A stretch of DNA of 37,016 nt from Candidatus Melainabacteria bacterium 17Bon1m (GCA_032128875.1 JAVLKG010000021.1:1-37016); one strand, 5' to 3'. Shown: positions 1-28,109, counted from the first letter of the stretch. Numbers and translations are program-made. The notes: a model not told the origin generated them from the sequence alone.

Positions 1-369
1 CAACACAAAGGTTCTGTAAGTGTTGAATCCAACGGTCACAACGTAGTTCTTGCTCCAGGTCGCCACGTGATGATCACGAAGCACCACACAGCAGAATTCG
101 CACAAATCAACGCTGTCGAAACCATCGCTCACCGCAACGTTCAAAGCACCGTCAAGAACGGTCACAGAGCACATACCTCTGAGTTCTCGGTCTTGACCGC
201 GATCGACACAGTAAAACCGCTTAAGGCATTGGCGACGTCGAAGCACTCGCATGCAAAACAAATCGCAGAGCGCATGATGAAGACAACAGCCATCATCTTG
301 CAGCTCGGTGGCGGCAGCGGCGGACAGTATCAGCACTACTTCAAGCCACGCATGACCGCGAAATTGTAG
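1..369 (+). CDS. 3' end of a surface-protein paralog (conserved C-terminal domain), truncated by the window edge
   Basis: Frame +1 is open from base 1 (QHKGSVSVESNGHNVVLAPGRH...QYQHYFKPRMTAKL*). It aligns without gaps to 15455-15823; by manual count about 87% nt and about 92% aa identity. Confidence 0.92.
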   Translation, partial: QHKGSVSVESNGHNVVLAPGRHVMITKHHTAEFAQINAVETIAHRNVQSTVKNGHRAHTSEFSVLTAIDTVKPLKALATSKHSHAKQIAERMMKTTAIILQLGGGSGGQYQHYFKPRMTAKL

Positions 370-389
370 GACGATGCCATGCCTCACTC
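366..389 (+). repeat. Degenerate GTAG-type REP-like element overlapping the stop codon
   Basis: GTAGGACGATGCCATGCCTCACTC aligns to GTAGGGGCGACGCCATGCATCGCCC at 15820-15844, at the same position relative to the stop codon; the stem has decayed. Confidence 0.6.
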
Positions 390-925
390 GGTTCGAGTGT
401 GCGACTGTTTTTAGTTCTGTGCGCACGCAGAATGATGGCCGCCAGAAGTTAAAGCGTTATCGCTCCAACTTCTGTAGTCCATGTCGGTGCTACATAAATA
501 GGTAAGGCTGCCTGACAAATATTCGTGTCATTTGTTTGGTATCCAACATTCTGGAGTGGCCAGCTTGGCGCTTCTATCTCCGGGAATTTTTCAGTCCCGT
601 AACCATGGTTTTATGGCAAATCTTTTAGATGGACACATTTGTCTGCAATCAAAATGCGCCGCACCGGCTGTGTACACGCTTGTAGCAAATTAGATACGGG
701 CGCGAAAGCCGCAATGGTCCTTCGATTAAGCGTGTCTTAATAGCACTTCATTGTCCGCTTTGATACGCTTTGGCATTGGGTACCTCGGTATCCACTATCA
801 ACTGCCACTTTGCCGAGCTAGCAGTTTGTTTCTAAAAGTCGCACCGACTTGTCTTCAAGTCGCTACGCCTTTTAGTCGTTTGGCATTTGTTTTCACTTGG
901 GCACTGGAAACTGGAGAACACACTT

Positions 926-3900
926 ATGGGAACGACCAGATTCGTGAAGATCAGCCTTAGCAGCATGGTCTTCAAGAAAACTTTCTCGTTGCTTACGGTC
1001 TTCCTCTTCCTTGCTTCGAGTAACCTGTCTACCGTCGCCCTCGCAGAGGGCGCGCGTCACGCTGCTTTCGAACAGTTCCAACTCGAAAATCCGGGGCTCG
1101 ACAAGAAAGAGCTGAACCAGATGTTCAAACAAGAATGGAGAATGCAGCGCGCCAACGACAATGACGTCCGAGATCTCGTCAACCCAGTCGATGCTTCTGC
1201 TGCTGTAATCAACAACCAAAACAACATTCAGCAGCAAATCGATAGAAACGATTTTGCGACGAAGGCAGAGTGGCAAGCAGCAAAGCAAGCATTCAAGCTA
1301 GAGCAGAAAGCTATCTCCAATAATCTGAATCAAACAATTCAGCAGACTTCAAACAACAAACTCGTCAGTATCAATCACGGTTTCTCACTGGATCTTACCT
1401 CTGCAGTAGAAAGCATTACTTTAGGCGACAAGCTTTTCCAAGGACAAAATTCAGTAGTTATCAATGTTGGCGGGCAGGACAAAACAGTCAGTGCCGGTTC
1501 GAAAGTAACCGCGGCAGAGTATGTTGCTGCCAGACAAGCACTGGGTGGCGGGTCGCAAACCGTCACACTTGATGCCGACGGACGCGCAACCGGCGGACAG
1601 GTCGATCTCTCGGCAATGACTAGCGGCAATCAGACAATGAAGGTGCGCGATCTCACCGTTCCAGTCGCCGTAACTGCCTCTGGTGATTTTGGCAAAGGTG
1701 GCGATGTCCGAATCCTCGGCGACCTGACCAACGCCGGAAGCATCGTTGCTTATTCGTCTGACAAGAACATCAACAATGCTGGAATTTTCGCAGATAACAT
1801 CACTAACACCGCAAGCGGAAATATCACATCGCAGCTCAACGACGTCGCCAAAAACAATGGTGGCGTTGTTTCGGATTTGAACCTGAGTTTGCGCGCCAAT
1901 GATTTCCTGACTAACTATGGCAATATCGACAGCGCAGGTGATTTGAACTTGTCTGCCGGCATCTCAGTGAAGAACCTCGGCGCTAGCTCGACATTGACCG
2001 CGGCTAAGACCGTCAATATCGAAACGCCCCATGTAGTGAATCAAGGCAGTGTTGCTGCTTTGGGCGGAAACGTGAACATCGCTGCGCCTCTAGCCACCGA
2101 TCTATATGTAAGTGGATACGGCGGAAACGTTCAAGCACTTAGCGGTGATATTAATATTGGAACAACCGGTCAAGTCGAGAAAATCAATACGACCATTCAC
2201 GGTGGCGACTGGAAAGCGAACAGCTTCAACATCACATCCGGTGATGGACATATTCTTGTTCAAGCTAACTCGATAGATGCTCCCGTAAATGCAACAGCAG
2301 GTTCCGGCGTCATCGGTGTGACTCAAGGTGACATGACGACTGGGCGAATGACTTTCAGTGGAGACCCGATAATCTTCTCCCAATTCGGCAACGTCAATTT
2401 GACTGACCAAGTTGCTGTAGGTGCTCCGATCACAATTTTGGCTGGTCAGAATATCACGGGCTCTGCGCAAACGATATTTTCCGGAAATTCATCAGGCTCA
2501 GGTGGAGATATCACACTCATTGCAGGTGCAAACATTAGCGCAGCTTCTGGAAGAGTGATTGTTTCAGGCGCTAGTGGCGCCGGGGGTAGTATCAACCTCG
2601 CTAATCTCAATACTCTTGATTCGAGTGGTTCCATAGATGGTGGCGATGTTCTACTCGTGGCTTTTAAAGGCAGTATCAGTCTTTCGCCATCCCTGACAAT
2701 ACAAACCGGCGGTGGCGGCTCAGGTGTTAATGGTAACGTGACAGCTATTGCAGGCGCTACTTCTGGAACTGGAATATCACTTCCAAGCATAAACACGACG
2801 GGTGGCACTGGAGGTGGCGGGAATGTCACGCTCGCTAACGCCACGCCTACGATTGTTGGACCTTTCGTTGAATATAGCGGAACCACCGGCGCTCTCGTAT
2901 CTGGATCTTTTGGAATAGGCACGCGGCAGTCTGGCGCGACCTTATTCGTGAATCAAATCACCGCTGGGAATGGCAATGTTTCATTGTTGGGAGGCTCTTC
3001 GCTAAATTCTATCCAAGTGAATTCCGCGAATTCATTTTCAGCCAGCTCGCTTGGAACCTTGGATTTAGGCTCGACTAGCGCGCAAACTATTTCTGGTGCA
3101 GCAAGCGGTGATATCACTCTGTTCGGCTCTCTTGCAGCGCCGGGAGGCATACTCCTTGTGTCCGGACAAGACATTGTTTCGAATGCCCTTGTCACTTCTA
3201 ACATCAGCCTGAATGCTTCCAGAGCAAATGGTGACGCTGGAAATATTTCGATGGTTGCTGGCGCCGCTTATACAGAGAACGCTAACAACGTACAAGTTAC
3301 TGGTCGTTCTGCAACCGGCGGCTCAATCAATTTGACCGCTACCACAGGTTCTGTCTCTACTCAAGTCACTTCTGGTAGTGGCTCCGGCGGAGCAGTAAAT
3401 CTCATCGCTTATACAGATGCAGGGTTTACGCAAGGCGGACAAATTCTCATGCCTGGCTATCCCATAGCCACTGATGGAAGCATCGTCAGCGGCGACGTCA
3501 ACGTTGTAGCCGAACGTCCGAGCGCAACTGCCATTCAGTTGAATACCGTCAACACAATGTCATCAAATCCCAGCAACCAAACTGGGAATATTTATCTGCG
3601 GACTGCCACGCCATTTTCAACAATTACATTCTCCACGCTGACACCTGGATTTGCCGGTACCAATAATTCCTTTATGCAAGGTACCTTGCAAGCTGGCGAT
3701 ATTATTTCGTCGACGTTGACTGCGCAAGGAGGCTTAATTCGAATCGAATCTGGAAGAAATATTCAGATCGGTAATATCACCAACAATATCGGAACTGGTC
3801 TGGGTGGCAACGTCACTATTCTCACCAACGGCACTTCTGCCCTACAGGTAGGTGGGGCCGGAGCCAATTTCACCGGCACAATTTCTGCAAATGTTGACAC

Positions 3901-6900
3901 CACAGGCATGGTCAGAACCATTTCAATCACCAACCTTGGCACCGCCGGAATTGACGTTATTTCGTTGCCGACTCAGTCAGTAACTACTCAAGGTCGAGGC
4001 GGTTCGCTGATTTTGGATGCCGATAACGGCACTCTTACTGTTTCTGGAACCATTGATAGAAACGGAGTGGGAACCAATAGTGACGGTGGAAGCATTATCC
4101 TGCGAGGCGCAAGTATTGCAAATCCAAGTGGTAATCTCTTTCTTACCGCTAATGCGACAGGCACTGGCAGTGGTGGCTCGACACTCGTTGAAACAGAGAC
4201 GGGAGCTATCACCGTAGGTACGGGCGCTACTCAAATAAGAGCTACTGCCAATGGTACCGGTGGCACCGTTGAGTTTCGATCTGGTGGCGGTATGAGTGTG
4301 CAAACGGCTATCAGCGCTGATCACGTAATTTTGCAGTCGAGCGGCGGCGGTTTGTTTTTCAATAATTCAGTTACTGGAAATAGTGATGTTACTCTCACTA
4401 CTCTTGGTTCTTCAACCATGAGCGGTACTGGTTCCATCAATACAAATGTATTGAATATCAACGCTGACTCCGGCGCAGTCACCCTGTTCACTGGAGCGAC
4501 CAGTGTAAGTATCAATACGAATTCAACTGTCACTCTCACAGAAGACAGTGACCTCACAATCAACGCTGGCACTACAGGCGCTGGCGATCTCAATATCTCT
4601 ACGATCGGAAATCAAAACTTCAACGGCAATTTTAGTGCTGCTAACTATTTGCTCACAGTTAACGGTAACTTTTCTCTAGGTGGAACTGGTGTGTTGTCTT
4701 CAGCCGGACAGTTAAACATCACTTCTCTGTCACCTGCTGGGCAAGCTGTTTTGAATACTGACGTCGCTACCCTGGTCGCTGGTTTTGAGGGAGCTGTAGA
4801 AATTAATGAAGCTAACAGTATAAGTTTGGGCAACACCCTTTCTGTGACGCACCTGAGGGTTAATGCAGGCGGCAGCATAAATGTAAATGGCGCGGTGACC
4901 GCGCAGAGAATTACACTCCTTTCAAAAGGAGAGATAGCAATCGCAAATGATATTTCTGCTCTGGGCGGAGGCGCTGGCTCCGGTCTCTTGCTTGTAGCTG
5001 CTGGAAATATTAGGACGTCTGCTGCAAACGTGGACATCACCACCGGCGTCTCTGGTGGGCAAGGGGGCAATATTGTAATGATTGCCGGCGCTGACTATGT
5101 CAATGCCGGTGCAAGCTCTATTCAGATTACAGGCGCATCTGCTTTGGGTGGAAATATCAACTTCGACACTACTGATATTTCATCGCTTAGAACAAGCAGC
5201 GTTAACGCCGGAAGCTCTGGTGGCGACTTGACACTTGTTGCCTACAACAGTGCAAACCCGCTTACCGGGAGGGTTCTGTTGCCCAGTTCATCAAGCTTGA
5301 TTACTTCCGGCAACGGTGGCGCTTCTGGAAATGTAGTAGTCGTTGGAAGCGGGACTGGCACGCAAGTGCAAATTGGGGCCGTAAACACTTCTGGTGGCAC
5401 GAGTGGTGGAAGCATCGATATTGCAACTTCTACTCTATCCAACCCCGTCTTCGTTTCAACTGGAATGCCAACATATACTGCTGGCGCCTTCTTTGATGAT
5501 CTAGGACCGGGAGCGATCACAACTGGTGCGCTAACTACATCCAGCGGCAACGTCTGGGTAAGAACTGACGGTGCAATCAACCTTGGTGCCATAAACACGA
5601 CTGCAACTGTCTCCGGTGCAAAGGGCGGCGATGTCAGAGTTGGTGGAGATGATCGAATAGCTAATTTGACTTTGTCGACCATTACAGCAAACGGACTGGG
5701 CTCTGGTCGGGGCGGCGATGTTGTAATCGATGCTAACGGGCTTGTGGTCGGAGTCATTAACGCGAACGGCGGAGCAACGGGGGCTGGCGGCTCAGTCATC
5801 GCAACCCACACTAATGATAATTTCGCTACAACTGTCTTCGATGAATTGGTCAGCGCGGCAGGTAATGGTGGCGGTAATGGTGGCACCATCAGATTGAAGA
5901 ATTTGGGTATTGCAGGTCTTCGGATCTCCGGTAATGACATTGCGGTTGGTACTGGAGGATCGATTGGTGGAACTATTGAGCTTGACGCCGGCACCGGCCA
6001 GACCAGTACTAGATATCTGATCATCAGCAACGCCGACTGGAACGTAACCGGTACAACCTCCAACGGACAAATACTGTTGACTGGCAACAGCATCGAATTT
6101 ACCGGAGCAGGACCCGCCACGCTCAATGCCGGATCCACCTCATCTACATCTGGACTTGTCCAGCTGAATTCTTCTGGTGCCAACACAGGTCTCAATATCC
6201 GCACCTACGGCAATAACCTGAATCTGTCGGGTGGCACAGTTACTGTTAACGATGCCATCAGAACCGTCGGTGGAAATCTGACGGTTAATGCCGGTACAGG
6301 AGGATTCAGTGGAATATACGTCAGCACCAGTGATACAAATCCTCCAAATGGTGCCAGCGGAAACATCATCATAAATTCTGCTGGGAACATTGATGGAGGT
6401 ACATTCGACACCAGTACTTCAGGTTCGGCTACCACAGCAGGTTCCATCAACCTCAACCTGACTTTTGGAACTGGAACTATAGACTCTCTGAACTTGTTTG
6501 CTATGGATGGTAATACCGGCACCAATACCATCACGGTAACCGCTAATTCTGGTTCTCTCCTCAATCTCGGAAGCGTGCGTACAAACGGCGGAACTGTAGG
6601 CGGCAACATCTCGATCACTAATTCTGGCACCGGCGGAATTGATGCATCCGATTTGGTAGCTGTTGGTACGACTACGAAAGGCGATGTGACCTTAAGCTCC
6701 TCTGGCGGATTGAGTTCTGCATCAGTCTATGCTGATCAATTCAATGTCAATTTTGTAAGTGGTAGTGCAAGTTTTACAACTGAGATTAGTAGTTTCAACG
6801 CGACCGCACCTTCAGGCTCGCTCACCATCAATGAGAGAGATGGAGTCGACATCGGTGTCGTTAGTCTCAATTCTCTTACTGTAAATGCAGGGAATTTTGC

Positions 6901-9900
6901 AGCAGGTGATATCGTGGCCACTGCGAACATTTCAGTTCCTGGAACTTTGACGTTGCACAATGCCAATGGAGCAATTCAGCTTAACAACAGCATCAGCGGC
7001 ACTACATCAGTAACTCTCGATGCTGAAGGCATAGCTCAACTAGGAGGCACGATCTCAGGCGGTTTGCTAACGGTCAACATGGCCAGTGGAATCAGTACTC
7101 TTACGACAAATGTGTCCCAGCTCCGTACCAATGTTGCGACTGGGTCTACTCTGTCCATTCAAGAAGCTAATGGTATTGAATTGTTGGACATTGTGGGCGA
7201 CACAATTACAGTGACCGCAGGAATGCTAGGCGCCGGAAATATAACAACTGCAAACGATATATCTGTGGGCACCTTGGAACTGGTCAATCAAAATAGCTCG
7301 TCGAACATTGTCTTAAGCAACAATATCGATGCGACAAGCCAGCTTCGCCTCACGGTGACTGGAAATGGCAATATAAGCCAAACAGCTGGCACGCTTACAG
7401 CTTCGCAATTCATAGTAAACGTTGGTGATGGATCTTTCGAACATCAGGGCGGCACAAGCGCTCAAATTCAAGGCGTCGGAGGATTTGGTCCCTTCATTGA
7501 CTTCAATTCGAACAATGGAAATCTAAATGTCGAAAACGTCGGACCAGGTTCTCTAACCTTCCTGAATTTTGTTGGAAACAGTCTAACTGCGAAGTCCAGC
7601 ACAATAGAGCTTGATAACGGCATCTTCATCGGTCTCACTAGTGACGCCAATTTGCTCACTAATGTCTTGAATCTCCATGGATCAACAATTGATACCACTA
7701 ATGGTGTCATTACCGTGTCTTCCATCAGTGGCGGATTAACTGTAGATGGTGGCAGCGGTGGCGTGCTAAATAGCACAAAGTATGCTCCTGGCAGTCCCGG
7801 ATTCCCAAATACTCCTGGAGTTGTTCTCAACTCGAACGGAGGATATCTCACGATCGCCGGCGACGTTACCGTTGCGTATGACTCTGAATTCAACGTCGGA
7901 AATCGCGATCTGATCGTAAGCAATTCCGCCAACTGGTACAGTGATTACAACATTTCGGTCAACGCACGTAATATCGAGTATCAGGGAGCCGGCCAGATTA
8001 CGGCTAACAATCTCATTTTTACGTCCAGCGCTCACAACGGCACTATAATCAATACCAGTGGCGATGTCACTCTCACTAGCGATCTGACTTTCAATGGACA
8101 AGACCTGGCGATTGTCGCAAGCGGCAACATCATTGCGTCTGGAATTACGTCCATCAACTTGAATAGTTCAAGCGGCAATGGCGGCAATCTGCATTTGGTC
8201 GCCGGCTACAATGCTACGCCTTCCAGCGGTGGACAGATTCAGACCTCAAATCCGTTCACGATTACGACAGCCGGAACTGGCAGCGTCAATCTCGGGGCGG
8301 TCACCATCAATACCAGCGCAACCGGAGCAACCGGTGACGCCGGCGATGTAGTTGCCGTCGCAAGCAACGGCTCCGTAAGCCTTGGTGACATCACCGCTAC
8401 ATCAACTAATGGAGTTGGTGGCAACGTACTTGTCGTTGGTCAGACTGGAGTGAATGTAACCGAAATAAACGTGACCGGTGGATCGGCAGGTGGAAACATC
8501 GAGCTTTCTGTGTCTGCTCCGCAGATTGTTGGCGGACCAATTAAGATTACTGATGGTGCTGTTGAAAATGGATCGTTTGCTGCTGGAACTACGGCTACTG
8601 CTGGCAATCTTCTTTTCCGCGGTACCACCGGTGCTGATGAAGTGACGTTTAGAACCGGAAGTGGGACTGTCAACCAGATCTTTGGCGGTGTGCTTAGAGC
8701 GAACACCCTGAACTTCCTTGCCGGCACAGGCGCTGTTTTACTTGATTACATTGCAGTCGGCACAGTGAATAGCGATTCACAGGGTTCGGTCACATTGAAC
8801 AACCAGTTGGGCAATGTCATCTTAGGCAATATCACAGGTGCGAACCAACACTTCATTCTCGGCACCGCGCAAAACATCACAACAAGTTCGGACATCAGCA
8901 TTGAATATATAAACTTAGCTGCCGTCAGTCTTACTTCTCAAATTAACCTTTTGCATAACATCACCGGGTCTTCTGGCGTGACCCTGTATGCCAGAGATTC
9001 GTTTACCCAGACATCTGGAACCAAAATAAGTGGTGGTGATTTGGTCCTTGGTCATTTCGCTACAACAACTTTGGCTACCAATGTCAATACTCTTTCAACC
9101 AGTGGAACTTCAACCGCCACGCTGACTATCAACGAAGACAATGGCATTCAGCTTCTTGGTCAGAGCGGAAATGTTCGAGTCAACACTTTGGGCGCCGGCA
9201 ACATCACAACAGGGAATAACATGAGTTTGACCTCTATTGTGCTTGATACAAGTGTTGGTGGGGGCAACATTATTCTTGGTCACAACGTGACTGGCAGTGC
9301 TAGTGTAGAACTGCGCACAGGCAATGGTGGTTCCATAACTCAGAATGCCGGCAAAATCAGCGGTGGAGTGCTTACCGTCTCCAATCCGGGTGGAAACACG
9401 ACACTTTCAACTAACGTGACTAGCTTGGCTGTTCAAGACTTATCTAGCCTCGTTATCAATGAAGATGATGGTATCGCAATAGGTGGCAACACCAATGGCG
9501 GTTCATTGACCGTGAATGCAGGTGTAGTCACAGCTGGCGTGCTGTCAACTAATGCCACTGTAGCGGTTGGAGCGGGAAGCATTACACTCAACTCGCAAAG
9601 CGGCGGCGGTTCAATTCAACTGAACAACAGTCTGAATTCGAGCGGTAGCATCAGTTTGACGGCTGTAGGTGATCTGTCTCAGACAGCCGGCAAAATCACT
9701 GCCGACCAACTCACAATTCATAGTGGCGGCAGTACTGCAGTCACTCTCTCTACCGACATCAATCAATTCAATGCGGGGGGCATATTCGCTCCGCTGACGA
9801 TTAATGAAGACAATGGCATCGCTGTCAGATCAGTTGTGGGCTACACAGCAAACAATCTGACCATCAATTCAGGTGTTGTATCCCCAGGCAATATCACGAC

Positions 9901-15823: not shown

Positions 15824-15844
15824 GGGCGACGCCATGCATCGCCC
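15820..15844 (+). repeat. GTAG-type REP-like element whose GTAG contains the gene's TAG stop
   Basis: GTAG-GGGCGACGC-CAT-GCATCGCCC; a near-identical copy lies at 32059-32083. Confidence 0.8.
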
Positions 15845-16191
15845 GGTCTTGACTGGTACTACCGCCATTTTTCGGCTCCTTGGTGGTGAGACTGGCGTTA
15901 ATAGTGGCGGGTTGGCGTAAGTAGCCTAACTCAGTCCCGCAAAGCTTTGGGCGATTGGTTGGCAAATATCCAACTGCAGCCAACCACTTTCCTTAAATCT
16001 GAACGTGTCGAAGTGTCGCCACAAAGCTGGAAACCTCTGCAGCACAAAGGGAATCCCGTTTGGGGATTACTCGCCGCATGTCCGGTAATAGTTGCTGGTT
16101 GGATACCATTAAGTTAGACTAATAAAAGAGAAGTTCTGGGGACCCATGGGACTTGAGGCGAGCGCGCCCGTCCTCTTTTTGGAATTAATAA

Positions 16192-19100
16192 ATGCCGAAA
16201 AAATCGTTGCGGAAGAAGCTTGGTCGTGTGACTGTCTTTAGCAAAGTCGGATTGGCTATGGCTGGCAGCATTTTGCTGCAGTCTGCGCCGGCTAGCGCTG
16301 GAAATCCCGATTTTCCTGGTGGGCGCGGTGCCGCTTTCCGCGATTTCAAGCAAGCCAATGACGGGTTGTCCGGCAAGCAGTTAAACCAGCTATTCAAAGT
16401 GCATTGGGCTGACATGAGAAACTCTGCCCAGGCTGTTGCTCAGCCTGTATTCGAGCAAAATGCCAACAACCTTTCGCATGGCCCAAACGTAGTAAACACC
16501 AACCTCAATAATTTGCAGAATCTGTCGAACTTGCCCAATCAAGTTGGCGCGACCAAACAAGAACTCAATCAGCAATTCAAGCTTGAGCGTCAAGCACAGA
16601 AGTTGGAGCATCAAGCTCTTAAGCAAGAGCTTCGCGAAGCAAAGCAAAACATAAATACAGTGCAGCAGATTTCTGCCGACAGATTTATTCGTGGCAACGG
16701 TGGATTCTCGCTTGATTTGAGTTCGGCAGTCGAGAACATCACACTCGGCGACAAACTATTTCAAAACGAGAGTTCGATAACCATCTCAATTGGCGGTGAG
16801 TCGAAAACGCTTTCTGCCGGCTCCAAAGTTACCGCCGCTGAATACATCGCAGCGAAGCAAGTTCTTGCAACAGGCGGACAGAAAGTTGGACTCGATTCAA
16901 ACGGTCGCGCTGTGAGTGGTTCTATCGACTTGAATGAACTCACTCCAGGCGACAAGACGATGAAGGTGCGCGATTTTGTTGTGCCAGAGAACGTGTCTGC
17001 AGCGGGTGATTTTAGTAAGAATGGCGACATTCGAATTACTGGGGACCTGATCAACTCAGGGACTATTCAAGCGTTTTCGTCCGACAACAAAATCACAACC
17101 GCAACGATCTCTGCGGACAACATCACCAACAATTCGAACGCGTCGATAACTTCCGACCTCAATCAATCTGCACGCGATTTAGGCGGTGTTGTTTCAAATC
17201 TTGGTTTGAATCTTCGCGCTGATGATGTGCTTTCCAATTATGGTTCCATCACAAGCTCCGGCGACCTGACTTTGTCCGCTGGTAAAACATTGAACAATTC
17301 AGGTAGTGCCATCGCGCAGAACAACCTCAACTTGCAAGCGCCAAAAATCGTAAACAGCGGACGCGTCGAATCCATCGCTGCGAACGTCAATTTGGATAGT
17401 TCTACTTTGTCTTCTCTCAACGTGAACAATTTTGGTGGCACGATAACTGCGTTGGATGGCGCGATAAATATTCGTAGTTCTGAGTACCAAGAGCGTTTTG
17501 ACACGCTGGTTTCAGGTGGCGATTTACTCTCGAAAGAATTGAATGTCTACACCGGTGGTGGCACGGCCGATGTGTTCGTCAATGCGTTGACCGGTATCGT
17601 GAACACCAGTGGTACAGCTGCACACGTTAGCGCAAATACAGAGGAACTGATACTCGGAACTCAGTGCCTAGTGGGAGATCCTACCTATTACAACACTGGA
17701 AACATTGTTCTCGGTGGTGATATCTTTGTTAACGAAACCTTGGCAATCATTGCGGGTGGATCAATTACAACAAATCAGTCTGACCTCCAGATCAACTCCG
17801 GAGGGCACGACATCTCAATAATTGCTGGAGCTAATGTACATACCGGTAGCGGCGAAATTGGTCCGGGAGCACTACCTTCTCAAATTGGGACGCCTAACCA
17901 TAATGCCAATTCTCCCGTTTCTTTTACTGGTCAGTCTGTGAGCGGTGGCAACATCGATCTCAGAGTTGCCGGTGGAAGACTGGATATCGTTTCTGGAGGC
18001 GGTGATGTTTTGCTGGCGGCATATGGCGGAGAAGTGCGGACCGATCTCGGCGCTATCATAAGTGCCTCTGGTTCTGGCAGCTCCAACAACGGCAACATCA
18101 CTGTAATAGGATCGACCGGAGTAACGATCGGAAACTTAAATACATATGCAGGTACTGGAACATCAGCTGGGACGGGAAACGTCTCTGTATATGCAGCTCA
18201 GCCGACTTTCTCCAGTGGCGGCAGTATTACCTTTGGCACCAATGGTAGTATCACTAGCGGCAATCGAATTGTTGCATCAGATACCATTACACCCACTGGA
18301 GCCGTGGAAATATGCAATGCGCGCTATACCGGTGACCTAACTGTGAAAGCTGGCGGTGATGTAATCATGCCAATATTTCATATTCCAAGTAGTCGTTCTA
18401 ACATTTCTGTGTCTTCATTAAATGGAGATATCTATACTCACGGTGGTTCTCTTGCGCGAAGCTATCTTCTGACGGCTGGTGGAAATATTTGGATAAGGAA
18501 TAGTTTTATCGCTCCTGGCGGCATAGTAATGATTGCTGGCCGTGATATTGCGTCTTACGCTTCTGGTTTCCCAAAGTTTGATGCCAGCAATGCTTCCGGA
18601 AATGGCGGCAACATTACGTTGATAGCTGGCGCCAATTATTCTCCTGGCAGTATTCAAAACATCGTTGGGAAAAGTGCAACTGGCGGTTCAATACGTTTGA
18701 ACGAAGTTGTGAACATGATTGAAAAATTTGATAATCATGGTGGCGGGGTGAACGCAAGCGGCGGCGAAATCAACCTTATCGCTTATGGTGGCGTAGTAAA
18801 TGTTTATCCAACTGCAAATGCCATTCTGACTAATGGTACCGGCAGCGGCAGTAGTGGCAAAGTCACCATCATTTCTGAGGGGCTCAATCTGAGGGGGGTT
18901 GACCAGTCTGGAACAGCTAATGGTGCAGTCAGAATTTACAACATGACTCTGCTCAGTTCCATCTCTCTGACGACCAATTCAAGCACTTCGAGTTTCGGCT
19001 CTGCATCTTTTACTCCGTTTGGAACGTTTTCTTCAGCAAATGTAAGCGCCGGTAGGATGACAGGTGTTCAAAATCTGCAAATCTTGACGGGGGGGAACTT

Positions 19101-22100
19101 AAGGCTTACTGGTATCAATTCTGATGGCTTGTCAGGCGCGGCAATCAACATCTCTATGAACAGTGCCCAGGCCTTCACCGTTGGCGGTGGTGTTTCTTCT
19201 AACGGAGTTGAAACAACAATTAGCGCGAATGCTGGTGCAGTTGGAAATGGCGCATCCCTTTCAATAACTAATTTGGGAACCGGAGGAATAGTTTTAACCA
19301 CTCCGCCTTCGATGAGTGTCACTGATGGCAATGGAATTACTTTACGTCTCAATGCCGGTTCTGGTTTGCTTAATGTTGCAAGCTTAGGTTCTATAGACGC
19401 GAGCGGAGTAGGAACAAACAAAGCTGCAGGAACTATTGAACTTATCGGTGGTTCACTAATTCGAACGAGTGGCAATCTTTCACTGACAGCAAATTCGACT
19501 GGCAGCGGTGCTGGCGGAAAAATTTTCCTTCGAAACGATGGTGCAGACGATATTCTCCTCGGTACAGGAGCTGGACAGATTGCAGTATCTGCCTCAGGAA
19601 GTGGGAGCGTAATTGATTTCGAGACTTCTGGATCGATTTCCGTACTTTCGACTAATCCTCTTAGTGCAGCGAGTATTTCGCTGAAAGCTGGCACTGGCGA
19701 TTTACTGCTAGATTCCTCCATCACCGCTAATGATTTGACAATCACTGCACCTGGAATGGTTTCGTTGCTTCAGAGTATCAGCACTAATGGCGACGTGACG
19801 ATAAACTGTTCGGGCTTGACCCTGAATGCAATCTCTGTAACGGCTTCGAATATTTTTGTATCAAGCCCATTCAACAGTTCTTTTACGTTGGATGGTGGTG
19901 CTGGTTCCACTCTGACTGCTGCAGTTGGCGGACAGGTGAGGGTGTTTGCCGATAGTGGTGATTTGACTCTTTTGGGAAACACAACTTATACGAGGAACGC
20001 AATACTTCAAGCATCTGGACTAGACCAATCTATTGTTGCTGCGGCTGGATCAAGCTCGATTGCATTGTCCAGCTCATACTTGCTGACCAATTCGCTTAGT
20101 GGTAGTGGGAGTTTTGTCACCATTGGATCTACATGGACTCTGGCTAATGGTGGTATGTACGCGAACAGCAATGCAGATGTAGTTGTAAGTGGACACTTGT
20201 CTTTTGCTGGTGCTGACTTCGCAATCATCTCGGGTCGGAGCATAAACCTCACGGGCGCAATAATCGATTTGTCCGGAGACGTTAATGGTGGAAGTCTAAC
20301 ACTGCTTGCTGGATATGATTTCACACCCAGCACCGTAGGCACTGTTTTTGATCGAACAACCACATACACACAATTTATTCCGAACGCGACTGGGGGATCG
20401 ATAGTCGGCGGTGCGAGTATAAGCACTACGGGAGGCACTGGAAGTGGCGGGAACGTCTATGCGTGTGCAAATAAAGGCTCCATCACGCTTGGTAGCATTG
20501 ATACGACCGGAGCAATAACCGGCGGAAAGGTTGTAATTATCGCCAACAATGGAATCGATCTCAGTTCTGGCACGATTACTTCTACCGGAGGGACAGCTTC
20601 TGGAAATGTGACTCTCGGAGTTGCAAGTGCAAGTTTTCCTGTTAGCTCAACCATTCAGAACGGTGTCTTCAGTGCAATTCCTACAATTTCAACATTTACC
20701 GCTGGGAATTTGAAAGTTGGTTCTATAGTTGCTGGTCAAGGCACAGTGCAGTTGATAGGCGGGAATTCTATAAGCAATTCTATAAGTGCGATAGGCACGA
20801 TCACGGGTTCAATGCTGGACGTCACCTTGAGCTCTGGTGTGGCTACGCTCAGCACTTCTGTCTCAAACATATCCGCCAGTGGAATCGGCAGTTTGACAAT
20901 TACAAATAACGCTGATGTTTCTACTGCTACTTTTTCTGGTTCTCTCACTGCAAGTATAGACAACGGCACAAGTGCTTTTAGTTCTGTCAGCGGAAGCTTG
21001 CAAGCTCTGACAATTAAGAGCTCCGAATTGAGCTGCAGTAACCTCAGTGTCGTCGGTCCGGTAAACATAACTACCGTTGGAACCGGTACCGTCAGCGGAG
21101 TTCTGAATATTTCCTCGAATGCGGAATTAACGATAGTCGCATCAAACAATGTTGGAGTTGACTCGAATAATAGATTTTCAACTAATGCACGCAACATAGG
21201 AATCACTGCGGGTGGATCGGTTTTCTTATCGAGCACAAATAGCCAGGATGTTTCTTTCAGAACAACATCCGTCGCAAGCACGTTTGATTTGCTGTCGAGT
21301 AAGTCCGTTTCGACAAGTGGAAGTCTTTCCGCGAACGATATTGTCATCAATGTTATCGATGGTGGGGTCGGCACTTCTGAGTCGCCGTTTCAGATTGCAA
21401 ACGGTGGAAACGCCATGACTGCCTCATTTGTAACGGGTAACTACGATGTAAATGTCATTCACAGCGATAATGGCGTTTTGACACTAGGGACTTCGTCAGG
21501 ATACAAACTGAATCTAACATCAACTACTGCTCAAGTCTCCACCTCAGGAGATTCAAGTTTTGCCGACGACATTACGATTATCACAAATCATTTTGTCAAT
21601 CAGAACAGGCTCATTTCCTCATCTGGTGATATCAGCATTAAAAGCTTGGCAGCAAGTGCTCTAACTTTGGATGGTGGCTCTGGCGGAGCTTTTTCGGCTG
21701 AGAATGGAACAATCAAAGTGACAGCAGCAGCGGGGGTATTGACACTATCAGGTAAAACTACCTATGAAACTACAGCTCGGCTCATAGCTTCTGAGCAAGG
21801 TCAAAGCATCAATCTCTTGAATGGATCCGAGTCTATTGCTCTAGCGCCGTCTTTTCTCTTCACCGGCACTCTGTCTGGTAACGGTACTTTGACGACAGTT
21901 GCGCCGGCTCCTAATCCAACTTGGAGCATCATTAATCAAGGTAGTTTCGTAAACAGTGGTGGAGACATTTCACTTTCTGGAAATTTGAACTTCAGTAATC
22001 TCGCAATAGTTGCCAGTCACAATATTGACCTAACTGGAGCAGTAATTAATCTGAGCGGCGGAAGTCTGACACTGATTGCAGGATTTAGATGTTCTTTGAG

Positions 22101-25100
22101 CACCAGTGGCAATACAGTATTCGACTCTTCCACTATTCTTCACTCGTTTACGCCAACTTCTGGAGGGTCAATTCTTGGTTCAGCAACCATCAATACGTCG
22201 AACTCTTTAGGTAGCGGCGGAAACGTTCTCGCGCTCGCTAATAACGGATCAATCGTTCTTGGTTCTATCAATACTGGAGGAACCGTGAATGGAGGAGGTG
22301 TCACGTTGTTGGCATCTTCGATTCAGACCGGCGCCATCTCTACCATCGGAGATTCGGGATTTTCCGGAGCCGTGAGGATCGAAACCGTGAATCCCACATT
22401 GCCCAGTGGAAATGGCTTTCAAATTCAGGACGGGAAGGTAATAACAGGAGCTGGTTCAGTCGGCATCGGTACAATTGCAGTAGGTAGAACTATTTCGGTC
22501 ACCTCTGTCGATGCTGGAAATTCAAGCGCAAATATTTCTGCGCAAGAGGGAACAGTAATTCTGCAATCCATCACTGCAAAGGACATTAACCTTTCCGCGC
22601 AAGAGCTCACGTTAGGTGTTGGTACTGTTGCTGCTGGAGTTGATGAGAGTGGAAATGCAGGAAGGCTATCGATAACAGCGAGCAGAATTAATACGCCAGG
22701 CAACCATTTGATACTGGAAGCTGTTGGACAGGATGATGGAAATGGTGGCGTTATCGACTTCACCAGCGGTGCTCCTTCAATTGTATTTTCTCAGGCCGGT
22801 GACGTCGAGTTTCATGTTGGTTCTCTAGGCGGAGGAAATGGTGGAAGCGTAAATGTCAATGCTCAAAATATTGTAATTGGTGAGAATGCAGTTTCAGGCG
22901 CTACTACAAAAGGCTCAAGTAGTGTTTCATTTTCAGCCTATAGCAACCTTACACTCAACTCGTCGGCGTTCGATATCCATGGAGCTGATGGACATGGAGC
23001 GCATATCGGGCTAAAGGTTGTGCAGGCAAACGGAACTTTGACCTTGAACGACACCACTTTCATTGACTTAGCAAACGGAACCGGAAGTGATGGAGATGGT
23101 GGCGCGATAAGTTTAGACGCAGCGAACATTGCTTTTGCGAATTCTCAACAAAGTCCACTTGCACTTACTGCGCTTGGAAGTGGCACCGGTAATGGTGGCT
23201 CGATATCTTTCGTAACTCGAAGCCCTTCAAAAATGTATGTCGGCACTGTGGATGGAAAACCATCGAAGACAGCTGGTACTTATATAACACTGGATGCGAG
23301 TAGCGGAGTAGGTGGTGGCAATGGGGGCTCTCTTAACGTGCAGACGGGAGGGACCTTAAGTGTAAATATGAGTGGTGCAAATGCAGCTGCACGGTCTTCT
23401 TCAGGAAACTGGAATGGAGCGTCGTACACTTTTGTAAGCGGTAGAACCTCTACGTCTAAGGGCAGCCCGTTGCTCATCACTGGAAATGTGGATGCAAGTG
23501 GTGTTAATTCTGGACACGCAGGTTCGATCGTCTTGTCTAGTGCATCTACAACTGCGTTCTCGATAAATGCGCCCAAAACCACTCAAAATGGGGTTTCAGG
23601 TTACGTCAGGGCATTCGACACAGTCGATACCACCGGAATCATCAGCATAACAAACGAGCTCGGCGGTGTTCTTTTAGGACAACCTGCTGCAATTGGCACT
23701 TCTGGAACCCTCAACATATCAGCAGGTGGACGCGGATCGATTACGCAGACGAGTGCAAAGTCCAATCCTGTATCGCCACTTCCTAGCGTGTATGCGCAAG
23801 CAAATAGGATGAACTTAAACACGCAGACCGGTTCGATTGGAGGAAACGTTCCTCTCTCAATCGCTGCCAGTTATGTTTCTGCCACATCTCAAGGATCAGT
23901 AAACATCACAGATGGGATTAACGCAGTTGTTGTTCTTGAAGATTCACAGGCCGTCAAAGGATTCACTTTTAATCGCACTTCGCAGCTTGCCCAAGATACG
24001 ATTTTAAATAACATTTCTTGCTACGATGGCTCGATATTGGTCCGGACCAATGGCGCAAAACTTTCAGTTACCGACAGCAAGATAATTAGTGCTTCTGATG
24101 GTGCAGTGGCTCTCATAAACACAGGTGCCTCCACAAGCGATCAAATCATCATTGGCAGTGACGCCATTGTAAGAACTACAGGGAGAGGTAAGCAGGTTAG
24201 CATTATAGTTGGCACGAATTTTGTTCCAAAGGTTGGAACTAATCCTTATCCGACGAATATCGCACCTTCCGGCGTCATTGCAAGTGCGACACCGCGCAAC
24301 GTAATTTATTTTGGAAATCCAGGTGTTGTAACCGTTCCCATCGGAACCGCAACTGTGAACGCTAAAAATGTCAACGTGCTGTTTTCTGGCACTAGTGCTG
24401 GTCAAATCAAACTTGGTAATGGTGCCTTTATCGAAGCAGATCCGCCGTCGTCTGCTGGATCTCAGAGTGTTAGCGGTCTAATGCCGACGCTGGAAAGCGG
24501 AACAACGACGAACTTGTCAATTAGCTCCTCTCCAGCAGTTGAAGGTATTCCATTTGTTAATAAGTCTAGTTTGCAGTATCCATCGCAATTCCAAAACGTG
24601 TCTTTGCTGACTGCAAGCAGTCTTTCTTCAATGGTTGCTAATACTCTATCCCTTCAATCTGGACTTACGCGGTCCGATATAGGAATGTATTCAGGCGATA
24701 GCGTCGATGATGATTCATATGTTGTAGGAAGCTGTAACACTTCTAACGAGATTGACGCTGCTGTTCGCAGTGATGCAATTGTTCTTAGCAGCGGGGAGAT
24801 CTTTGGTGGCAGTATTTCACAAAGTAGTCGGTACGCCAGTAGTGAGCTTACCGAGACATTGAGCTCGAAGGACGGACCTGTTCTTTTTGTTCCAACAAAG
24901 GATACGGCGATAGAAACTCCATTCGGAATCGTCAAGATCAGCGGCAATTCAATTGCTCTGGTGTCGGTTTCAAGCGCGGGACTTTCTGTATTCGATTTAG
25001 ACGATCAGCACAAAGGCTCCGTCTCAGTAGAATCTAACGGTCACAATGTTGTTCTCTCTCCTGGTCGGCATGTGCTGATTACGCCGCACCATAGGGCTGA

Positions 25101-25374
25101 GTTTGCGCAACTGAATCCGATCGAAACTATTGCGCACCGAGCTTTGTCGAGCAGTGTCAAAAATGGACATCGTGCGCACATGTCTGAGTTTTCCGTTTTG
25201 TCGGCGATTGATTCTGTCAAGCCTTTGAAGGCATTGGCGGCTTCAAGTCATCCGAATGCACGCAAGATTTCGGGACGGATGTTGAAGACGACCGCAATCT
25301 TGATGCAGCTCGGGGGAGCTCGTGAGCAGTATCAGCATTACTTCAGACCTCATATGACAGCGATGCAGAAATAG
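16192..25374 (+). CDS. Giant secreted filamentous-haemagglutinin-like beta-helical repeat protein (3060 aa), paralog of 926-15823
   Basis: Uninterrupted ORF with a Sec-like signal (MPKKSLRKK...APASA|GN). A 194-aa ungapped N-terminal block is about 62% identical to the upstream paralog by manual count. Same C-terminal domain, ending QYQHYFRPHMTAMQK. Confidence 0.9.
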   Translation: MPKKSLRKKLGRVTVFSKVGLAMAGSILLQSAPASAGNPDFPGGRGAAFRDFKQANDGLSGKQLNQLFKVHWADMRNSAQAVAQPVFEQNANNLSHGPNVVNTNLNNLQNLSNLPNQVGATKQELNQQFKLERQAQKLEHQALKQELREAKQNINTVQQISADRFIRGNGGFSLDLSSAVENITLGDKLFQNESSITISIGGESKTLSAGSKVTAAEYIAAKQVLATGGQKVGLDSNGRAVSGSIDLNELTPGDKTMKVRDFVVPENVSAAGDFSKNGDIRITGDLINSGTIQAFSSDNKITTATISADNITNNSNASITSDLNQSARDLGGVVSNLGLNLRADDVLSNYGSITSSGDLTLSAGKTLNNSGSAIAQNNLNLQAPKIVNSGRVESIAANVNLDSSTLSSLNVNNFGGTITALDGAINIRSSEYQERFDTLVSGGDLLSKELNVYTGGGTADVFVNALTGIVNTSGTAAHVSANTEELILGTQCLVGDPTYYNTGNIVLGGDIFVNETLAIIAGGSITTNQSDLQINSGGHDISIIAGANVHTGSGEIGPGALPSQIGTPNHNANSPVSFTGQSVSGGNIDLRVAGGRLDIVSGGGDVLLAAYGGEVRTDLGAIISASGSGSSNNGNITVIGSTGVTIGNLNTYAGTGTSAGTGNVSVYAAQPTFSSGGSITFGTNGSITSGNRIVASDTITPTGAVEICNARYTGDLTVKAGGDVIMPIFHIPSSRSNISVSSLNGDIYTHGGSLARSYLLTAGGNIWIRNSFIAPGGIVMIAGRDIASYASGFPKFDASNASGNGGNITLIAGANYSPGSIQNIVGKSATGGSIRLNEVVNMIEKFDNHGGGVNASGGEINLIAYGGVVNVYPTANAILTNGTGSGSSGKVTIISEGLNLRGVDQSGTANGAVRIYNMTLLSSISLTTNSSTSSFGSASFTPFGTFSSANVSAGRMTGVQNLQILTGGNLRLTGINSDGLSGAAINISMNSAQAFTVGGGVSSNGVETTISANAGAVGNGASLSITNLGTGGIVLTTPPSMSVTDGNGITLRLNAGSGLLNVASLGSIDASGVGTNKAAGTIELIGGSLIRTSGNLSLTANSTGSGAGGKIFLRNDGADDILLGTGAGQIAVSASGSGSVIDFETSGSISVLSTNPLSAASISLKAGTGDLLLDSSITANDLTITAPGMVSLLQSISTNGDVTINCSGLTLNAISVTASNIFVSSPFNSSFTLDGGAGSTLTAAVGGQVRVFADSGDLTLLGNTTYTRNAILQASGLDQSIVAAAGSSSIALSSSYLLTNSLSGSGSFVTIGSTWTLANGGMYANSNADVVVSGHLSFAGADFAIISGRSINLTGAIIDLSGDVNGGSLTLLAGYDFTPSTVGTVFDRTTTYTQFIPNATGGSIVGGASISTTGGTGSGGNVYACANKGSITLGSIDTTGAITGGKVVIIANNGIDLSSGTITSTGGTASGNVTLGVASASFPVSSTIQNGVFSAIPTISTFTAGNLKVGSIVAGQGTVQLIGGNSISNSISAIGTITGSMLDVTLSSGVATLSTSVSNISASGIGSLTITNNADVSTATFSGSLTASIDNGTSAFSSVSGSLQALTIKSSELSCSNLSVVGPVNITTVGTGTVSGVLNISSNAELTIVASNNVGVDSNNRFSTNARNIGITAGGSVFLSSTNSQDVSFRTTSVASTFDLLSSKSVSTSGSLSANDIVINVIDGGVGTSESPFQIANGGNAMTASFVTGNYDVNVIHSDNGVLTLGTSSGYKLNLTSTTAQVSTSGDSSFADDITIITNHFVNQNRLISSSGDISIKSLAASALTLDGGSGGAFSAENGTIKVTAAAGVLTLSGKTTYETTARLIASEQGQSINLLNGSESIALAPSFLFTGTLSGNGTLTTVAPAPNPTWSIINQGSFVNSGGDISLSGNLNFSNLAIVASHNIDLTGAVINLSGGSLTLIAGFRCSLSTSGNTVFDSSTILHSFTPTSGGSILGSATINTSNSLGSGGNVLALANNGSIVLGSINTGGTVNGGGVTLLASSIQTGAISTIGDSGFSGAVRIETVNPTLPSGNGFQIQDGKVITGAGSVGIGTIAVGRTISVTSVDAGNSSANISAQEGTVILQSITAKDINLSAQELTLGVGTVAAGVDESGNAGRLSITASRINTPGNHLILEAVGQDDGNGGVIDFTSGAPSIVFSQAGDVEFHVGSLGGGNGGSVNVNAQNIVIGENAVSGATTKGSSSVSFSAYSNLTLNSSAFDIHGADGHGAHIGLKVVQANGTLTLNDTTFIDLANGTGSDGDGGAISLDAANIAFANSQQSPLALTALGSGTGNGGSISFVTRSPSKMYVGTVDGKPSKTAGTYITLDASSGVGGGNGGSLNVQTGGTLSVNMSGANAAARSSSGNWNGASYTFVSGRTSTSKGSPLLITGNVDASGVNSGHAGSIVLSSASTTAFSINAPKTTQNGVSGYVRAFDTVDTTGIISITNELGGVLLGQPAAIGTSGTLNISAGGRGSITQTSAKSNPVSPLPSVYAQANRMNLNTQTGSIGGNVPLSIAASYVSATSQGSVNITDGINAVVVLEDSQAVKGFTFNRTSQLAQDTILNNISCYDGSILVRTNGAKLSVTDSKIISASDGAVALINTGASTSDQIIIGSDAIVRTTGRGKQVSIIVGTNFVPKVGTNPYPTNIAPSGVIASATPRNVIYFGNPGVVTVPIGTATVNAKNVNVLFSGTSAGQIKLGNGAFIEADPPSSAGSQSVSGLMPTLESGTTTNLSISSSPAVEGIPFVNKSSLQYPSQFQNVSLLTASSLSSMVANTLSLQSGLTRSDIGMYSGDSVDDDSYVVGSCNTSNEIDAAVRSDAIVLSSGEIFGGSISQSSRYASSELTETLSSKDGPVLFVPTKDTAIETPFGIVKISGNSIALVSVSSAGLSVFDLDDQHKGSVSVESNGHNVVLSPGRHVLITPHHRAEFAQLNPIETIAHRALSSSVKNGHRAHMSEFSVLSAIDSVKPLKALAASSHPNARKISGRMLKTTAILMQLGGAREQYQHYFRPHMTAMQK

Positions 25375-25377
25375 TGC

Positions 25378-25401
25378 GGGCGGCATTTATGCCGCCCCTC
25401 C
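25378..25401 (-). repeat. GGAG-tagged REP-like palindrome just after the stop codon
   Basis: The minus strand reads GGAG-GGGCGGCAT-AA-ATGCCGCCC, a perfect 9-bp stem with no U-tract. Confidence 0.65.
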
Positions 25402-25549
25402 AGAGACTGTGCAATGACGGAAGGGATATAAATTTCCGTTGGCGATTTTAGCTTGCAGGTTGTCCTCAAATTCTGGGAAAATAGAATTCTCTATTGAGGC
25501 CGAGGCGCTGTTGGAAGAGGGAAAAGAAGATACGCTTGAGCACGTCAAG

Positions 25550-27744: not shown

Positions 27745-27806
27745 TAAGAAGTGCGTTCAAGAAGAAAACATTTCTCTGCGCTTTGGCGCATGGATGGCGG
27801 CACTGC

Positions 27807-27958
27807 ATTTCGCTCCAAGCATGCTAATCATAAATAGTAAGGTGACACCACAGACGGTTCCGGGCTCCAAGCACCCCTCTCAAATACCGTCACCGTCTGC
27901 AGTGTCACTTGTCTTGTGCTTCCTGATGACAAAATGATATTTGATGGGTGTGCGAAAT
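27807..27958 (-). ncRNA. Candidate structured RNA: long rod with a central bubble, 6S-like topology; family not identified
   Basis: A 17-bp helix (27842-27858 with 27892-27908) plus inner and outer stems. Five C/A mismatches on the + strand are G-U pairs on the - strand. Confidence 0.45.
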
Positions 27959-28015
27959 TGACTGTGGAATTGCACAGTTGTAGGTTAGTTAGTTGAAACC
28001 TGTGATTGAATGGCC

Positions 28016-28101: not shown

Positions 28102-28109
28102 AGATAACT

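Follow-up and report, generated by a model that had tools for sequence, protein, structure and literature searches.

A putative two-protein, autotransporter-like display system for giant beta-helical proteins in Candidatus Obscuribacterales

In this study, a 37,016-nt stretch of DNA from Candidatus Melainabacteria bacterium 17Bon1m (GCA_032128875.1, JAVLKG010000021.1:1-37016), referred to as the window, was analysed by computation throughout. The window is the whole 37-kb contig C21 of a genome (G000) of 7.55 Mb that is 93% complete and consists of 35 contigs. Its first 25.4 kb holds three frames for giant beta-helical proteins with conserved ends, and the question raised by this locus is how chains of several thousand residues would be carried across the outer membrane and held there. 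The best explanation, which we regard as about evenly poised between right and wrong, is a lineage-specific autotransporter-like display system split in two proteins, the giant protein with a conserved C-terminal domain of ~180 aa (C-domain) and a separate barrel-like partner. As far as searched, the family is confined to one order of non-photosynthetic cyanobacteria, Candidatus Obscuribacterales; the order name was taken from the source names of the partner homologues.

The array and the C-terminal domain

Listing and translation of the open reading frames (ORFs) confirmed three co-oriented paralogs with the ends MTAKL, MTAKM and MTAMQK, as had been noticed earlier in a reading made without database searches (the sequence-only reading). 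The order given there, consisting of Sec signal, Q/N/K-rich segment, N-terminal domain (N-domain), stalk, ADPP plus S/A-rich linker, and C-domain, was found in both complete proteins. The protein of giant gene 1 is labelled P0002 and that of giant gene 2 is labelled P0001. The features of the array are as follows.

1..369, + strand: 3′ end of an upstream paralog, 5′-truncated by the contig start; last 122 codons, covering C-domain residues ~63-184, with the end RMTAKL and a stop
926..15823, + strand: giant gene 1, frame open from TTG 887; protein ends RMTAKM
926..1045, + strand: signal-peptide-like N-terminus of giant gene 1; basic stretch, hydrophobic stretch, ALA|E (by eye)
1046..1345, + strand: Q/N/K-rich, low-complexity, helix-prone segment of giant gene 1; length and composition vary among relatives
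1346..2377, + strand: conserved N-domain of giant gene 1, with the LDLxS ... GDP motif block; probable beta-helix with N-terminal cap, by homology to the modelled copy
2378..14842, + strand: variable G/S/T/N-rich beta-helical stalk of giant gene 1, ~4150 amino acids (aa), with internal repeats of the TINEDNGI type
14843..15268, + strand: ADPP motif and A/S-rich linker of giant gene 1, holding the small conserved motif DNSYxVGF...CSD
15269..15820, + strand: C-domain of giant gene 1; predicted FecR/CJM-like beta part and helices
16192..25374, + strand: giant gene 2 (P0001), 3060 aa, ends HMTAMQK
16192..16299, + strand: signal-peptide-like N-terminus of giant gene 2, ends ASA|G (by eye)
16300..16668, + strand: Q/N/K-rich low-complexity segment of giant gene 2
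16669..17700, + strand: conserved N-domain of giant gene 2, the modelled copy; predicted right-handed beta-helix closest to secretion domains of the two-partner-secretion (TPS) type
17701..24435, + strand: variable beta-helical stalk of giant gene 2, ~2245 aa
24436..24819, + strand: ADPP motif and S-rich linker of giant gene 2
24820..25371, + strand: C-domain of giant gene 2, the modelled copy; predicted CJM-like beta part, then three helices with the conserved LKTxAI

The start of giant gene 1 is uncertain among positions 887, 926, 965 and 968, and ATG 926 is likely to be the right one, judged by likeness to the N-termini of its paralogs. The product is put at ~4965 aa; it would be 4978 aa from TTG 887 and is 4951 aa as translated from 968 (P0002). 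In both P0001 and P0002 the signal peptide was judged by eye, as a basic stretch and then a hydrophobic stretch with an A-x-A site. BLASTP alignment of the two proteins gave 36% identity over ~1250 N-terminal and ~1300 C-terminal residues; by segment, it was highest in the C-domain (71%), followed by the N-domain (47%) and the stalk (32-36%). The sequence-only reading had put the conserved N-terminal domain at 194 aa; the first ~190 aa are indeed the best conserved, and the block extends to ~340 aa once relatives are aligned.

The ADPP motif lies at residue 2749 in P0001 and residue 4626 in P0002, followed by a linker of ~130-140 aa that is rich in Ser in P0001 (26%) and in Ala in P0002 (22%). 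The paralog linkers (14843-15268 and 24436-24819) keep a short motif of acidic residues, SYxVG(F/S), and then ...AA(L/V/I)(C/R)(S/T)D, which could be a processing site or a pore-spanning segment.

Neither P0001 nor P0002 matched a Pfam or NCBIfam family at E ≤ 1, save for sub-threshold noise, of which FHA-type repeats were nearest. The C- and N-domains searched separately gave nothing above noise in the same libraries, and profile searches with alignments of the C-domain, the N-domain and the partner found no match below E = 0.09 among the sequences of the PDB.

In each of the 32 ORFs inspected in relatives, the C-domain formed the very C-terminus, with 0-37 aa left to the stop codon. The proteins that end in it range in length from 155 aa to an open frame of 14,400 aa; in the small members, nothing but a low-complexity linker separates the signal peptide from the domain. 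When a profile built from 34 copies was run against 1.84 billion proteins, 2555 cluster representatives matched with E ≤ 0.001, of which 793 had E ≤ 1e-30. Among the matches listed (best 150 of 2555), the longest protein had 7943 aa and some proteins held two or three tandem copies of the domain. P0005 and P0006 (~600 aa) have three tandem C-domains and P0019 and P0020 have two, a departure from the rule of a single terminal copy. Within the order, the C-domain was present in 98 of 107 genomes, with at least 31 copies in many of them, and 300 genomes taken from the phylum's other families contained none. In genome G386, the C-domains at C12:216851-217378 and C12:217959-218492 end convergent open frames of 14,400 and 10,978 aa, which to our knowledge rank among the largest bacterial open frames.

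The AlphaFold model of the C-domain, with a predicted local distance difference test (pLDDT) score of 86, showed an all-beta part and then three helices. VIA-align placed first 4m0h_A, a putative anti-sigma factor (Z 9.0, 102 residues aligned, root-mean-square deviation (rmsd) 2.5), and second residues 111-251 of PupR, 6ovm_R (Z 8.0, 102 aligned, rmsd 3.2), with the next match at Z 3.6. Foldseek returned the same entries at E of about 0.02 and nothing at E ≤ 0.001. The CJM-type beta-solenoid, a feature of FecR regulators, is thus present in the C-domain by fold only; PF04773 matched C-domain sequences at no better than E = 0.058, in one distant small member. Residues 110-238 of PupR are described, in PMC7186176, as a periplasmic CJM beta-solenoid-like subdomain which, together with the STN subdomain, binds PupB, an outer-membrane transducer, at the latter's periplasmic signalling domain. 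The giant proteins have three helices where the STN subdomain would be, and neither an anti-sigma domain nor a membrane helix. Known C-terminal sorting signals, including the type IX secretion system (T9SS) C-terminal domain (CTD), PEP-CTERM and LPXTG, were not matched in NCBIfam or Pfam by the whole proteins or by the C-domain. The earlier proposal of a lineage-specific pathway had been staked on this end being neither a known barrel nor a described sorting domain; as modelled, it is neither of them and is a FecR/PupR-CJM-like fold with helices.

Given this fold, the C-domain might serve in cell-surface signalling, reporting the state of the fibre (contact, tension) to an extracytoplasmic function (ECF) sigma factor, and an ECF sigma factor gene does lie directly upstream of the paralog on contig C9. 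We consider this very improbable: the proteins have a cleavable signal peptide, they lack both an STN and the cytoplasmic anti-sigma domain with its transmembrane helix, and no neighbouring sigma factor turned up repeatedly among the 24 giant-gene flanks taken from six genomes, none being found at the array in the window. The region upstream of the C9 paralog (G000:C9:107871-113720) holds, before the sigma factor gene, a gene for a 1114-aa VIT-domain protein followed by an exosortase (EpsH) gene. The sigma factor was considered as a part of the system and was rejected for its lack of recurrence beside other giant genes.

The partner family and the predicted complex

Clustering of 342 neighbouring ORFs from the 24 giant-gene flanks in six genomes revealed one family of 400-450 aa, referred to as the partner, that recurs at 6 loci in 3 genomes. 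The only other recurrent neighbours in that clustering were two-component regulators, patatin-like lipases (3 loci) and two unknown families. The partner sequence combines a signal peptide with an amphipathic beta pattern and lacks any transmembrane helix; its core ends with the aromatic-rich GFDFRFFGGLR, followed by a disordered tail. Five members matched no Pfam family at E ≤ 0.01, hence neither PF04575 (Slam/DUF560) nor PF01103 (Omp85), and the only NCBIfam match was a faint one to FomA_fam_porin (E = 0.019). Among 374 database homologues, every name seen was 'hypothetical protein', and several were labelled Candidatus Obscuribacterales. The sequence-only reading had reported no recognizable secretion module; this is true of the window, and the present search adds a barrel-like family that is encoded elsewhere in the genome, lies adjacent to the giants in many relatives and is predicted to bind the C-domain.

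The partner has the same range as the giant family, being found in 22 of 24 genomes of family f1, in 3 of 3 of family f2 and in none of 13 from other families of the class. Of the order's 107 genomes, 96 had the C-domain together with the partner and 8 had neither, while 2 carried the C-domain only and 1 the partner only. Two of the eight genomes lacking both are more than 90% complete, and the eight fall in four genera. Since three of these four genera also contain members with both, joint loss of the C-domain and the partner is suggested.

Partner genes were also found close to giant genes. As counted by eye, 15 of the best 39 partner matches, and 13 of the best 20, lay within 5 kb of an N- or C-domain match, for which we estimate roughly 1.4 by chance. 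The partner is encoded just upstream of a giant gene and co-oriented with it in G013 (two loci) and G021, just downstream of the C-domain of a giant in G021, and divergent from a giant gene in G004, G017, G025 and G024. In G013, G016, G020 and G022, a small C-domain protein and then the partner form a tight operon with gaps of 87-218 bp. Further adjacent pairs were found in other genera (G338, G344, G365, G381, G390, G413 and G414).

This genome has two partner copies, C1:559336-560745 and C4:529581-530888, both unlinked to giant genes. As read from the sequence, the C1 copy keeps the pre-barrel motif and part of the post-barrel helix, and the C4 copy is short-tailed. Convergent to the C4 copy and 20 bases off, a 1086-aa protein with TPR and CHAT (caspase-like protease) domains and a signal-peptide-like start is encoded (G000:C4:526304-529561); it could be a processing protease for the fibres.

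Partner residues 55-385 from G021 (48-sequence alignment) were folded as a pair with the C-domain of the adjacent giant itself (41-sequence alignment). The complex scored 0.74 (runs 0.70, 0.75 and 0.74), the best of three controls scoring 0.00; the partner chain had pLDDT of at least 77, and the runs agreed in 42% or more of their contacts. For calibration, 116 out of 157 solved complexes had attained the mark, as had 2 out of 215 mismatched pairs, a comparison that is rough only, as own alignments were used. The model thus supports the prediction that the C-domain binds the partner.

On the C-domain side, the predicted interface consists of the helical part, residues 129-167, plus residues 63-65 and 80-81; on the partner side, it consists of residues 88-102, just before the beta core, and 348-365, just after it. 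In both families these are the most conserved positions outside the cores. They include, in the C-domain, K158 (38/41), T159, A161 and I162 of the LKTxAI motif together with P81 (41/41), and P348 (43/48), Y350 (39/48), R358 (41/48) and Q360 (45/48) of the partner, whose interface motifs are F.PG..F.FQ and P.Y...M..LR.QL. The C-domains in the window retain the LKTxAI helix. Meeting of both partner ends on one face is what a closed barrel with periplasmic termini would give.

In the two-protein system that we prefer, the giant proteins would cross the inner membrane by Sec, as suggested by their N-terminal signal peptides. The body would be a very long right-handed beta-helix that opens with a conserved, TPS-like, capped N-domain. 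The C-domain would act as a periplasmic docking module, a FecR/PupR-CJM-like beta-solenoid with a three-helix bundle, binding the N-terminal pre-barrel segment and the C-terminal post-barrel helix of the partner; co-occurrence, synteny, the complex model and conservation of the interface all point to this docking. The partner would be a dedicated, lineage-specific, barrel-like outer-membrane protein of ~400 aa. We infer that the S/A-rich linker after ADPP would run through the partner's pore and that the beta-helix would fold outside as an adhesive fibre, with the TPS-like N-domain as either its starting or its finishing point. From the periplasmic side, the C-domain would tether the fibre, a docking domain taking the place of a covalent link, and one or few partners would serve many interchangeable cargoes. 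Computation gives the domain architecture, the size and taxonomic range of the family, the lack of a TpsB, the co-occurrence and adjacency of the partner, and a predicted complex built on the most conserved residues of both families; the role of the partner as an outer-membrane barrel, passage of the chain through it, surface display and adhesion are expectations of the model.

The same complex model can be read in another way, in which the partner only tethers the fibres, and these cross by another general route (e.g. secretin-type) or stay in the envelope as a structural or sheath layer. The C-domain is placed on the terminal extensions of the partner, outside the pore, small C-domain proteins with no passenger still pair with the partner in operons, and cargoes far exceed partner genes, all of which would fit such an anchor. 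We nevertheless consider it unlikely, as no other outer-membrane component recurs beside the giants in the 342 ORFs, other routes not having been searched for systematically, and a fibre of thousands of beta-helix residues, estimated at more than 100 nm, would be hard to house in the periplasm.

The N-terminal domain and comparison with known systems

The N-domain shares the range of the C-domain and was found in 13 of 24 genomes of f1, 3 of 3 of f2 and 0 of 13 from six other families of the class, with up to 32 matches per genome and 30 in one genome of 2.9 Mb. Its model (pLDDT 90.5) is a right-handed beta-helix with a cap. TPS secretion domains, or proteins that carry one, took all of the top five places in VIA-align: HxuA (Z 18.7, 209 aligned, rmsd 3.1), HMW1 (Z 18.4, 231 aligned, rmsd 3.2), EtpA (Z 17.8, 241 aligned, rmsd 3.5), a second HxuA entry (Z 17.4) and a second EtpA entry (Z 16.9); FHA came lower, at Z 15.4. 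Foldseek gave nothing at E ≤ 0.001, its top match being HxuA at E = 0.013. From this model the N-domain appears to have a TPS-like fold and is at most a candidate member of the TPS family.

At the level of sequence, PF05860 (Haemagg_act/TPS) had no match at E ≤ 1 in P0001 or P0002 and none across the genome, and the control genomes gave none either. NPNG and NPNL are conserved motifs of TPS domains; a regular-expression scan found neither of them in the first 600 residues or anywhere else in P0001 and P0002. GGxGxD nonapeptide repeats were likewise absent from both proteins, and PF03797, the autotransporter barrel, was matched in Pfam neither by the giants nor by the partner. FHA-type repeats stayed below threshold (Fil_haemagg, E = 0.01; fil_hemag_20aa, 16.1 bits vs a cut-off of 18). 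The absence of known secretion hallmarks claimed in the sequence-only reading therefore stands for the TPS motif, RTX repeats and a C-terminal barrel, and is to be amended by the TPS-like predicted structure of the N-domain.

TpsB (PF03865, ShlB) had no match in this genome. At E ≤ 1e-10, PF03865 was found in 0 of 107 genomes of the order, weak matches occurring in 12 of them (ORFs of ~700 aa, best 2.7e-5), whereas the same search was positive for 73 of the 121 genomes drawn from the phylum's other families, among them 39 of the 40 from a sister family within the same class. Omp85 (PF01103) gave a single match in this genome. A PF05860 match together with a TpsB elsewhere, which would have told against a lineage-specific pathway, was thus not seen.

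These results bear on the possibility of a divergent type Vb system, in which the N-domain would be a highly diverged TPS domain exported by an undetected TpsB or by BamA, and the C-domain and the partner would serve only in retention, regulation or maturation. The five structural matches (Z 16.9-18.7), the first place of HxuA in Foldseek, the sub-threshold FHA-type repeats and the one Omp85 in the genome speak for it. Against it are the lack of PF05860 and of NPNG/NPNL, the contrast in PF03865 between the order and the other families, the finding of one PF01103 match only, and the fact that generic beta-helices come within about 2 Z units of the TPS domains. On balance, we think it improbable that export takes this route.

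Compared with the type Vb proteins FHA, HMW1, EtpA and HxuA, the giants share a cargo with a Sec signal, a very long right-handed beta-helical fibre, one dedicated, putative outer-membrane partner, and a capped N-terminal beta-helix that matches TPS domains best by structure. They differ in the sequence features given above, in the absence of TpsB/ShlB from the order, in a partner with no Omp85/POTRA signature, and in that the partner is predicted to bind the C-terminal rather than the N-terminal domain.

A classical autotransporter (type Va) has passenger, linker and a 12-stranded C-terminal barrel in one chain. The giants would share with it the order of beta-helical passenger, linker and membrane-proximal C-terminal module, and the logic of a linker through a small barrel; the predicted core of the partner, ~245 residues, is close to the size of an autotransporter barrel. 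They differ in that a second gene would supply the barrel, with a FecR-like docking domain making the non-covalent connection, and in that their C-terminal 184 aa model as a soluble beta-solenoid with three helices, with no PF03797.

With FecR and PupR, the beta part of the C-domain shares superposition on CJM (Z 8.0-9.0), and docking of a periplasmic module on the periplasmic extension of an outer-membrane barrel has a precedent there, as described for PupB in PMC7186176. The differences are the absent anti-sigma domain and membrane helix, the three-helix bundle in place of STN, and a partner that Pfam does not identify as a TonB-dependent receptor.

In the type IX (CTD) and type XI (Slam) systems, likewise, many length-variable cargoes carry one C-terminal domain and few outer-membrane proteins serve all of them; here, their sorting domains were not matched, the partner has neither DUF560 nor a T9SS component, and the fold is another. 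From RTX adhesins (type I), the giants differ by their signal-peptide-like N-termini and the absence of GGxGxD motifs. The giants thus resemble type V fibres, yet fail the tested defining features of TpsA proteins, autotransporters, RTX adhesins, FecR regulators and C-terminal sorting signals.

Several observations weigh against the two-protein system. There are 1-10 partner genes per genome vs up to 31 or more C-domain proteins, so that sharing of the partner would be needed, and partner genes are mostly unlinked from giants in this genome and its genus. Relatives share kinship, and co-occurrence therefore overstates independence. The folded pair comes from another genus (G021), and its C-domain is 26-27% identical to those of the window. 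The view of the partner as a barrel draws on its sequence pattern, the faint FomA-porin match and the contact of both its ends with the C-domain in the complex model. We know of no precedent for a barrel core of ~245 residues, with no POTRA, moving chains of 3,000-14,000 aa, and no energy source is evident. The operons of small C-domain proteins with the partner, in 4 genomes, mean that the pair may do something other than export, e.g. act as a plug or regulator. The fold of the N-domain leaves room for another route, and its margin is weak, unrelated beta-helices reaching Z 16.5 vs 18.7 for TPS domains.

The idea in the sequence-only reading that the conserved ends serve as export or anchoring signals of a lineage-specific pathway holds so far in its core, with the partner family and the TPS-like N-domain as amendments. 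A stronger claim, which we put forward tentatively as possible but doubtful, is that of an undescribed outer-membrane secretion and display system, in which cargo of any size would be marked by a C-terminal FecR-like domain, and a small POTRA-less barrel would recognize it in the periplasm, let the chain through and retain it. Such a system would form a separate class of its own, handling some of the largest open frames in these genomes. If the two-protein reading holds, it would be a new way for a diderm cell to move and hold very large fibres across the outer membrane without ATP, with the address at the C-terminus and with a separate barrel unrelated by sequence to Omp85 or autotransporter barrels. 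It would give a role to two large families outside the curated libraries (2555 representatives of the C-domain and 374 homologues of the partner). It would also explain the striking genomic investment of a poorly known, mostly uncultured order, whose fibres would likely shape how the cells attach, in water systems and soils, to surfaces, prey or partners. A search of the full-text literature, subscription journals lying outside it, found no description of the family.

Gene copies, neighbouring genes and sequencing runs

This genome has at least 8 giant genes, with C-domain matches at 9 places and N-domain matches at 9. Complete copies number four, namely the window's pair, C25:626-10618 (3331 aa) and C9:114108-122690 (2860 aa). 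The other four run into contig ends, on C25 (>3470 aa), C30 (>2347 aa), C24 and C26. Contigs C24 and C26 are each one frame open at both ends, of 7489 and 5934 aa, and break at identical points inside the N-domain and the C-domain. With breaks inside the conserved ends, the assembly has evidently collapsed there, and the array is longer than any single contig shows. By our own sum, the giant genes fill ~95 kb of five contigs whose breaks fall within these genes, and a further 8.6 kb of C9. The profile search of this genome also found two small stand-alone C-domain ORFs (C3:191831-192805 and C1:853948-854826).

At window positions 14668-16001, across the C-domain coding region, the summed contig depth was 4-5 times that of the flanks in all four sequencing runs, and many contigs join there to other places. 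This rise fits collapsed near-identical copies, and such depth is not a copy number. Three runs labelled RNA contain the region; the contigs in them match, piece for piece, those of the DNA run made from that sample (12,367 and 3,883 bases), with the stretch 15781-28147 assembled identically, and their depth is flat across genes and spacers. These identical pieces and flat depth make the RNA-labelled runs look like DNA, and they show no transcription.

Neither of the two spacers of the array had a promoter-like site, in a scan for the sigma-70-type consensus only, so that this absence means little. Two hairpins follow the giant genes.

15824..15844, no strand assigned: G+C-rich hairpin with a 9-bp stem, immediately 3′ of the giant gene 1 stop; T-run on the minus strand only
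25378..25397, no strand assigned: G+C-rich 8-bp hairpin with loop TTTA, four bases past the giant gene 2 stop, read from the sequence

The rest of the window encodes a membrane protein, a CobT-type enzyme, a GGDEF response regulator, an acyl-CoA dehydrogenase, DnaJ-domain proteins, RNase HII, a GTPase, L19 and NrdR. The membrane protein (25439-26614; 391 aa, multi-pass, with no family) is encoded by a gene that overlaps the CobT-type (TIGR00303) phosphoribosyltransferase gene by 4 bases (pair 25439-27744). This pair was considered as parts of the system and set aside, being beside the array only in G011, of the same genus, and not beside giants of other genera. The response-regulator/GGDEF diguanylate cyclase (28209-29693, minus strand) lies 2.8 kb downstream of the array and has relatives near giants in G011 and G024; a link between cyclic di-GMP and fibre production is possible.

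The two unknown families found beside giants in relatives are located at G021:C7:388172-392525, G024:C10:368228-370396 and G016:C2:23870-25234. One of the unknown families (~470 aa, with a G-rich hydrophobic C-terminal part) has five paralogs in this genome, e.g. C3:197306-198709 and C3:694578-695957. The other is a helical secreted protein of ~250 aa, whose closest homologue in this genome is at C8:15868-16419.

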